Shown one piece after another: positions 37,921 to 39,197 of a stretch of DNA of 64,000 bases. Positions within the stretch are counted from its first letter, which is position 1. Each line of letters starts with the position of its first letter. The DNA comes from Eledone cirrhosa (taxonomy: Eukaryota): NCBI GenBank assembly GCA_964016885.1, contig OZ024741.1, positions 90,520,001 through 90,584,000 of the forward strand. The letters run 5' to 3'. The translations under genes were made by a program, and so were the position numbers. The notes under the pieces were generated by a model. The model saw only the letters and a program-made list of their open reading frames with translations. It made no database searches and was not told the origin of the DNA.

Positions 37921-39197
37921 ATTCGATCGCAGCGCTGTTAGTTGCTATCGTGTGTGTGTGTGTGTATAGATATGTTTATGTGTGTGTGTGTGTGTCTATA
38001 TATATATGTATATGTATATTATTATTGTTGTTGTTGTTATTATTATTGTCGTTATTATTATTATTATTATTATTGTTATTAATGTATATGTGTGTAAGTA
38101 TATATATATATATGTGTGTATGTATGTATGTATGTATGTGTGTATATATATATATATATATATATATATATATAGGAACCAGTAAGACCCCGACAGCTGA
38201 GCTCAAGCCGTTTCGACGGCTAATTCTGGACTAAATGAAAATTTATCCTGGTATGTAAATAGCCGATCTTCTCAAGGGGTAATTCCATATATGGTCAAAG
38301 TGATTGTCAAAAATCAGTAGTAATTCTGTGGTTGCAAATTAGTAGGGGAGATGGTGGCTAAATCTGCCAGTAGGAGAAAGAGGGGCGGGGGTGGAGTAGA
38401 CCCAATCAAGCGTTGGTAGTGCCAGCTACAGCTGGGCATGAGGTCAAAGAAGATACAGGGGAGGGGGAGGGGGAGGAAGTCGGAACGGTAGGTAGAACAA
38501 TGGGGGGTAGAAGGGGTAGAAATATATAGGAAAGAAAAAATACTGAGAGTGAAGAAAAGCAAATAAGTGTAAAGAAAAAAGTAAAGTAAATTAAATTCTA
38601 CGACCTAGGTCTCAGGCTATTGTTAGGCTAGAATAAAATAAAGAAAGAAAGAAAGAAGTAAAGAAAAAAATAAATAAAGAAATAACGAAATAAGTAAAAG
38701 AACTAGGTGGGACGGTATAGGCAAGGACCCTTTTAAGAGGTATAAGTACGTAAATGATACGGTGACGGGTCAACAAAAGGGGCCAAAATACTAAAGAGAC
38801 TACCACGAAATAAACAATAAAGGTTTCCATCCCGGGTCAGCAACGGCCCAGTGCAGCAAAGTGAACTTGTACGAGATAATAATTCTGAGTCCCGAGAAAA
38901 ATATATACTAATGCTAACTCTAAAAGATCTAAAACAAGCTACATGAAATTTCGTACGAAATAAAGGTAGAATACGGAGAAATAAATTCAGAATCCACCCC
39001 GCCCAGAAGAAAAGCGGAGCAAGAAATACTGAAACGAAAAAATAAGGCATAAGTGCCACTAAGAAATATAGAGGGCACAGAGAATAGTGGGAGCGGTCGG
39101 AAAAAGGGGGCAAGTATCCAGGGTCTAAGCCAACTGCTATAAAGGGCGGAGTCCGCCAAATCTATCATAGACTAGGGGAGGGGGTGGTGGGGGTACT
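37921..39197 (-). repeat. Inverted copy of the PLE 3' UTR/pLTR (38172-39197 = rc 42419-43443) plus the right host flank (37921-38171 = rc 43511-43779)
   Basis: Direct alignment by eye; the ORF track shows the same spurious peptides on opposite strands. Confidence 0.93.
38187..38280 (-). ncRNA. Hammerhead ribozyme (U3:A8), inverted pLTR copy
   Basis: Reverse complement of 39777-39870 with one substitution in loop II. Confidence 0.8.

Follow-up and report, generated by a model that had tools for sequence, protein, structure and literature searches.

Published insertions of endonuclease-positive (EN+) PLEs, as the available sections of the sources describe them, carry an inverted, 5'-truncated copy together with a tail of 30-40 bp that is present at one end only (PMC8557442; PMC3846280), and for one family of the Hydra clade, Penelope-13_HM, an inverted 5' copy of 966 nt is on record (supplement of PMC8557442). 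The Hydra clade itself comprises C-terminal EN+ PLEs with a DKT motif, a CxCX5C linker, CxxC and CxH, which insert into (TA)n (PMC8557442, section 11). In vitro, the PLE protein cuts and extends both target strands, and the tail corresponds to the sequence between two RT start sites, which are used on both target strands; the steps after reverse transcription are, according to the available part of the same study, yet to be validated (PMC11167929). Comparable structures arise by repair: at breaks in yeast, inverted insertions of the fold-back type occur that are 10 to over 150 bp long and joined by overlaps of 0-5 bp (PMC11724301), and TA repeats, being prone to cruciform formation, are hotspots of breakage with MMEJ as the repair route (PMC13645644; both as given in the sections available). 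Here we describe a PLE in which the inverted arm is continued by an inverted copy of the host flank. The window, i.e., the whole stretch of 64 kb that was analyzed, contains the following parts of this locus:

37773-37922, no strand: outer (TA)n tract, joined to the inverted flank copy through a 2-nt AT overlap
37921-38171, minus: inverted right-flank copy that mirrors 43512-43779 and comprises the final codons of the zinc-finger ORF, mixed microsatellites and (TA)n
38172-39197, minus: inverted, 5'-truncated, tail-less PLE arm of 1026 nt, its outer end meeting (TA)n with a TAT overlap
about 38187-38280, minus: the arm's copy of the predicted hammerhead
39195-39197, no strand: ACT overlap at the joint of arm and 5' pLTR
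39195-39953, plus: 5' pLTR, a 5'-truncated tandem copy that includes the tail segment (39886-39953), 99.1% identical to 42754-43511
39777-39870, plus: type I hammerhead with variant core, from fold prediction, predicted cut after 39865
40056-42227, plus: ORF without interruption (723 aa counted from the first Met) with RT (YRDD) and C-terminal GIY-YIG-type nuclease
42228-42753, plus: 3' UTR, with the arm start (42419) inside
42754-43511, plus: 3' pLTR with predicted hammerhead (about 43335-43428)
43444-43511, plus: candidate tail of 66-68 nt, present in the right end and the 5' pLTR, not in the arm
43510-43564, no strand: (TA)n that adjoins the main copy at its 3' end, with an AT overlap
43512-43779, plus: right flank segment whose inverted duplicate lies on the left
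43759-44271, minus: reading frame ending in three C2H2 zinc fingers

This layout is close to that of canonical EN+ PLE insertions (PMC8557442 Fig. 2; Pen2a_Av, PMC3846280; Penelope-13_HM), with which it shares the partial tandem, the (TA)n target, the inverted 5'-truncated arm that overlaps the direct pLTR, the tail at one end and the hammerhead-like motif of the pLTR. However, the tail measures 66-68 nt here and 30-40 nt there, and the 260-bp inverted host copy takes the place of the 8-10 bp direct duplication or bare (TA)n that the available descriptions give. Flank copying and joining through overlaps of 0-5 bp are also features of the yeast fold-back insertions (PMC11724301) and of TA-repeat MMEJ (PMC13645644), but the hairpin seed would here be the (TA)n itself, the assembly is a germ-line one, and the copied tracts of the window measure 55-314 bp, those of yeast, according to the available text, mostly 5-34 bp (PMC11724301). 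The likeness to L1 twin priming, as far as the available sections of PMC11702581 describe it, consists in two cDNAs joined head to head via microhomology and in the occurrence of inverted target duplications, whereas the second primer of L1 anneals anywhere in the RNA, the enzymes are different, and the PLE ends at our locus lie at element-defined points near the 3' end. Within the titles and abstracts searched, a scope outside which most subscription journals fall, including the early Penelope papers, we found no report of an inverted target duplication at a PLE, nor of a genome-wide class of (TA)n-centered inverted duplications.

The element is a new family member with an already known layout: a single ORF with RT and GIY-YIG, pLTRs in partial tandem, an inverted 5'-truncated copy and a tail restricted to one end, although longer than the published ones. 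Besides YRDD and VIY-x-YIG, the 723-aa ORF contains DKT, CxCX5C, CxxC and CxH, which match the description of the Hydra clade in section 11 of PMC8557442, with CxxC and CxH placed around conserved E and N. Judged by these motifs, the element fits the Hydra clade, which it also resembles in having one ORF with C-terminal GIY-YIG and in its (TA)n insertion, since both of its ends abut (TA)n. It differs from the clade in the length of its unit (about 3.6 kb versus "generally <3 kb" in the available text of PMC8557442), in RWR at residue 37 where the clade has RWK, and in its variant hammerhead core. An assignment to the Naiad/Chlamys clade was rejected, as the nuclease motifs (residues 591-607) lie C-terminal to the RT and not N-terminal. 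Among 8000 candidates scored, 1242 relatives of the ORF reached E <= 1e-20; the full-length relatives are about 40% identical to it, and the local Pfam library gave no match. The family is present in high copy number, with a contig depth that climbs steeply toward the 3' end (contigs of four runs on 37906-39240). None of the eight metagenome loci with relatives (three near full-length, contigs of 2.5-4.4 kb) has an inverted arm, but these contigs are too short or too distant to be informative. A metagenome contig (L001) contains a single PLE unit with identical 55-bp ends (1-55 and 2428-2482), as expected of a collapsed tandem array or a circle, and with a canonical hammerhead core at 2392.

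The pLTR is predicted to fold into a three-stem hammerhead topology with a non-canonical core, in which, by the core numbering that we assume for 39777-39870, U3/A8 stand where C3/G8 are usual. The U/A core pair and the long stem II are kept in all three copies. No canonical CUGANGA core was found in the pLTR. A search of Rfam yielded 36 matches up to E = 1, none of them to a hammerhead; they were matches to miRNAs that microsatellites had caused and that stayed below threshold. In fold energy, the motif does not surpass shuffled sequences (z = -0.55). A further hammerhead-like motif was seen by eye near 44750-44785, close to a 60-bp direct repeat (44285-44350 and 44820-44880, 535 bp apart) that ends at (TA)n; the repeat pair is possibly a small non-autonomous PLE derivative.

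Several other features of the window, whose genes and repeats mark the host as an animal, deserve mention. A second PLE family is represented at 11497-13118 (minus), 8420-9375 (plus), 36491-36698 (plus) and 34025-34493; its protein is 52% identical over the C-terminal part, with one frameshift, three of the copies share the end point that precedes (TA)n, and two stand tail to tail across 2 kb. Two tandem repeat units (34492-35617 and 35614-36494) end in a hairpin plus CTAG, an end that we take to resemble the 3' ends of Helitrons. A diverged hairpin of 168 bp (23131-23298, 86%) is MITE-like, and a host exon-like frame at 676-1290 encodes a von Willebrand factor A domain (E = 2.8e-39). Fragments of mobile elements lie at 18178-19616, 21546-22106, 60680-61234 and 9868-10365, including an RT fragment (RVT_1) and what are presumably a transposase-like frame pair and two non-LTR-like C-terminal pieces.

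Self-BLAST and global alignment revealed that 37921-39197 is the reverse complement of 42419-43779 with a single gap (E = 0). This agrees, within a few bases, with the original prediction of a fold-back arm that copies the PLE 3' end and about 260 bp of the right flank, and its identification of the element as a PLE with an inverted 5' arm is borne out by the motifs, the self-alignment and the published PLE layout. The PLE part of the arm (38172-39197) mirrors sense positions 42419-43443 and differs from the 3' copy by 10 substitutions and one 1-nt indel over 1026 nt. It starts, as had been proposed, at a 3' UTR position outside the 5' pLTR, 335 nt upstream of the 5' pLTR start (42754 equivalent), and the 3-nt microhomology (ACT) said to join it to the 5' pLTR was recovered at 39195-97; overlaps of at least 3 nt occur in 3.9% of 100,000 random head-to-head joints. 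Where a skip of 43444-43510 had been noticed, the alignment places a gap of 66 nt (43444-43509), or 68 nt if the AT shared with (TA)n is included. Beyond the gap, 37921-38171 mirrors 43512-43779, so that the mirror does reach 43779 and end in (TA)n as described, and it is joined to the left, 150-bp (TA)n through a 2-nt overlap. The unique part of the flank occurs only at these two places within the 64-kb window. The duplicated segment takes in the last 7 codons of the zinc-finger frame at 43759-44271, a neighbor that had been called a LINE; the domain search detected only C2H2 zinc fingers in it, and we presume that the frame is the 3' end of a non-LTR element. The mirror structure is real as assembled and probably also real in the genome.

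Between the two flank copies there are 2 clear substitutions over about 258 bp, together with about 5 microsatellite length changes; of the 6 mismatches that the aligner gave, 3 were discounted as misaligned repeat units and 1 because it falls past the junction. Compared with the PLE copies (10 substitutions in 1026 nt), this yields a Fisher p of 1, and thus the ages of the flank and PLE duplications are not measurably different and a single event fits equally well. The similar divergence is, in other words, compatible with two-step as well as one-step readings. Within the 691 bp common to arm, 5' pLTR and 3' pLTR, private differences number 3, 3 and 4, respectively, so the arm is no closer to the 3' copy, its supposed template; over the full length of the arm there are 4 private changes in the arm and 7 in the 3' copy. 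At 4 sites where the 3' pLTR differs, the arm has the 5' pLTR allele. Moreover, at 38846 and 39017 the arm and the main copy share a base that has no support in any covering contig (three and four runs, respectively). These shared rare alleles indicate that arm and main copy derive from one source element or subfamily, and they lend weight to the common source that the original prediction assumed. The overall pattern fits identical copies that would have mutated independently since; such independent private changes argue against a mirrored-read artefact and do not separate fold-back from twin priming.

By its position and its presence at one side only, the skipped segment (43444-43509/11) is most likely the PLE tail, and since the arm lacks exactly this segment, it ends like a canonical tail-less PLE end. 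Both ends of the candidate tail come shortly after one shared 9-mer (43433 and 43495); when the 112-nt stretch in question was shuffled 2000 times, 24 of the shuffles had a repeat of this length. Both PLE ends meet (TA)n through short overlaps. Slippage between the two 9-mers was rejected as the cause of the gap, as it would retain 6 further nt that the arm lacks. The two PLE ends may be interpreted as the pair of sites at which RT starts in an element of the Hydra type. Other copies of the family also have head-to-head joints, at other positions (3 among the 20 listed loose ends of 121). Two of these joints were checked against the window, and one of the arms reaches the 3' UTR; hence, a long arm with its start in the 3' UTR is no peculiarity of the present insertion.

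The inverted flank, too, has counterparts in the window, where 31 (TA)n tracts were found, two of them touching the PLE. Two of the other 29 tracts are centers of inverted flank duplications without a PLE:

32836-32997, no strand: PLE-free inverted duplication; a 55-bp segment lies between two (TA)n tracts, the second of which is followed by the mirror copy and then by unique DNA; 2 substitutions over the 55 bp
51469-52237, no strand: PLE-free palindrome centered on (TA)n, with (TA)n also at its outer limits; arms of 314 bp, free of substitutions

In the first of these the outer copy is joined to (TA)n and the inner copy continues into unique DNA, a layout equal to that of our locus minus the PLE. 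The mirror scores of the two cases are 64 and 386, and 64 was exceeded by 1 of 812 cross-pair controls, a dispersed repeat. The tract at 37773, which scored 43 on AT-rich low-complexity DNA, was left out of the count. A scan that merges nearby tracts misses the 32.9-kb case, and a 20-nt mirror test misses the 51.8-kb case. The rate of PLE-free (TA)n-centered inverted duplications is therefore 7% (2/29; 95% interval 1-23%). The identical arms of 51469-52237 could reflect a recent event or an assembly artefact, and if the latter, the 7% background halves. The presence of such PLE-free twins at 2 of the 29 tracts implies that flank inversion requires no PLE, and with a 7% background an element that seeks (TA)n would hit such centers fairly often.

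Taken together, we favor, with a probability of about 0.52, the reading that the PLE inserted into the (TA)n center of a short palindrome left by earlier snap-back repair. In the first step, a break would have occurred in (TA)n, which is self-complementary and thus able to seed its own hairpin; the broken end would have formed a fold-back, been extended by about 260 nt along its own flank and then been reconnected to the left (TA)n through the 2-nt overlap, giving the order left, (TA)n, X', (TA)n, X, right. The mirror copies around (TA)n and the 2-nt overlap of the outer joint, within the 0-5 bp expected, are what snap-back repair would leave. In the second step, suggested by the anatomy of the locus and the in vitro work (PMC11167929), the PLE nuclease would have cut the central (TA)n and both ends would have primed RT on the same kind of RNA, the tailed start at 43511 leading to the 4.3-kb main copy and the tail-less start at 43443 to the 1.0-kb arm. 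In the third step, the two cDNA ends would have been joined head to head via ACT. This reading requires two events at one site. An older flank duplication could show more divergence than the PLE copies, but no such excess is seen. The inverted flank is unusual, yet it is most simply explained as a pre-existing (TA)n palindrome. The original prediction had the nascent cDNA re-prime on itself and copy through its own priming site into host DNA. We disfavor this proposal because of the tail-less arm and the PLE-free twins: as the tail is present in the cDNA, a self-folded strand should copy it, and the arm, from which the tail is absent, is not a continuous copy through the priming site.

The form of fold-back that fares best among the alternatives is a single step. 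The end of the main cDNA would have annealed to itself at 42419 and been extended as far as 43443; after a jump to the (TA)n that lies 68 nt ahead on the same strand, synthesis would have gone on through about 260 nt of host flank until the strand was joined to the left (TA)n. We consider it rather unlikely, but it accounts for every junction with one continuous strand, and the about equal divergence of flank and PLE copies as well as the rare alleles common to arm and main copy fit it. Self-priming has, moreover, been proposed for the inverted repeats of PLEs (PMC3846280), and L1 gives hairpin or foldback junctions and inverted target duplications (PMC11702581; both from the sections available). 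Against it, such a strand has to lose exactly the tail, for which 9-mer slippage is no help given the 6 nt that it would keep, and a loop of 3.2 kb would be held by 3 nt. The arm also lacks all 7 differences private to the 3' copy, each of which must then post-date the insertion. Furthermore, the PLE-free cases show flank inversion without a PLE, and the published insertions with an inverted pLTR have ordinary target duplications of 8-10 bp, as far as the available text of PMC3846280 gives them.

It is improbable, in our view, that the flank copy was added by repair after a canonical insertion. If the (TA)n outside the arm broke at a later time, the arm would have been able to pair with the 3' copy, the tail being looped out, so that the right flank was copied before a return to the left (TA)n. 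The missing tail and the choice of the flank beside the 3' pLTR would both follow, with the 1-kb inverted repeat supplying the homology. However, simple snap-back at that tract would copy the end of the arm itself and not the distant flank, which means that an ectopic template has to be invoked, and the flank copy is not measurably younger than the PLE copies, a comparison of low power.

Quite improbable, too, is an assembly artefact, in which arm and flank copy would come from fold-back reads or a misjoin at (TA)n. Fold-back reads make up about 0.55-0.6% of Nanopore genomic reads (PMC12870357, in the part available), the nearby palindrome at 51469-52237 has identical arms, and no contig among the matches listed spans the stretch or bridges the ACT joint. 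The contig comparison covered all contigs of 4 of 10 runs, on 37906-39240 only and with the microsatellite-rich part skipped; the best run holds 0.65 of the words, and the runs are probably from an individual other than the sequenced one. Three raw-read runs are RAD libraries, and PstI, SbfI and EcoRI have no site in 37300-44300. That no ACT-bridging contig was among the matches listed (32 of 7423 pieces, 20 of 121 loose ends) should not be taken to mean that the joint is absent, as contigs drop rare variants. Against an artefact, the arm is not mirrored about one axis and involves three distinct junctions, it has 4 private substitutions and microsatellite lengths of its own, and at 4 sites it agrees with the 5' pLTR and not with the 3' pLTR, an agreement not expected of a read that mirrors the 3' copy.

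Finally, we regard as very improbable a twin priming on sister ends, in which, after replication, the two copies of the right-hand end primed both cDNAs, whereupon one sister was broken at a distance of about 260 nt and connected to the left (TA)n. A single event would then account for two genuine RT starts on flanks that are identical, and cDNA-tethered foldbacks of sister ends are described for L1, but it needs a second break only 260 nt away without net loss at the locus, and the L1 cases, in the sections of PMC11702581 available, are large rearrangements in tumor-like cells. A 3' transduction of the flank was considered as well and would leave the missing tail unexplained.

A bolder reading, which we hold only tentatively, is that the PLE machinery itself makes inverted flank duplications: the nuclease would open (TA)n, and the end would snap back and copy 50-300 bp of flank. 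With similar reserve, the product would then have been either sealed empty, as in the two palindromes, or filled with a PLE, as at our locus, by re-cutting or by one-step copy-through. If the duplications are PLE-made, three cases in 64 kb would mean that such a genome contains thousands of footprints, open to dating, of how PLEs cut and how the second end is joined, and if the flank copy was made during insertion, the locus would be a rare direct record of how PLE insertion is completed. On the favored reading, a PLE in a pre-existing palindrome, the PLE is an ordinary one, and the locus still shows two PLE ends. The apparently frequent (TA)n-centered inverted duplications, which may be scars of the PLE endonuclease, lend themselves to a count across the genome and to a test of whether they are linked to PLE nucleases, and they are the more promising lead.
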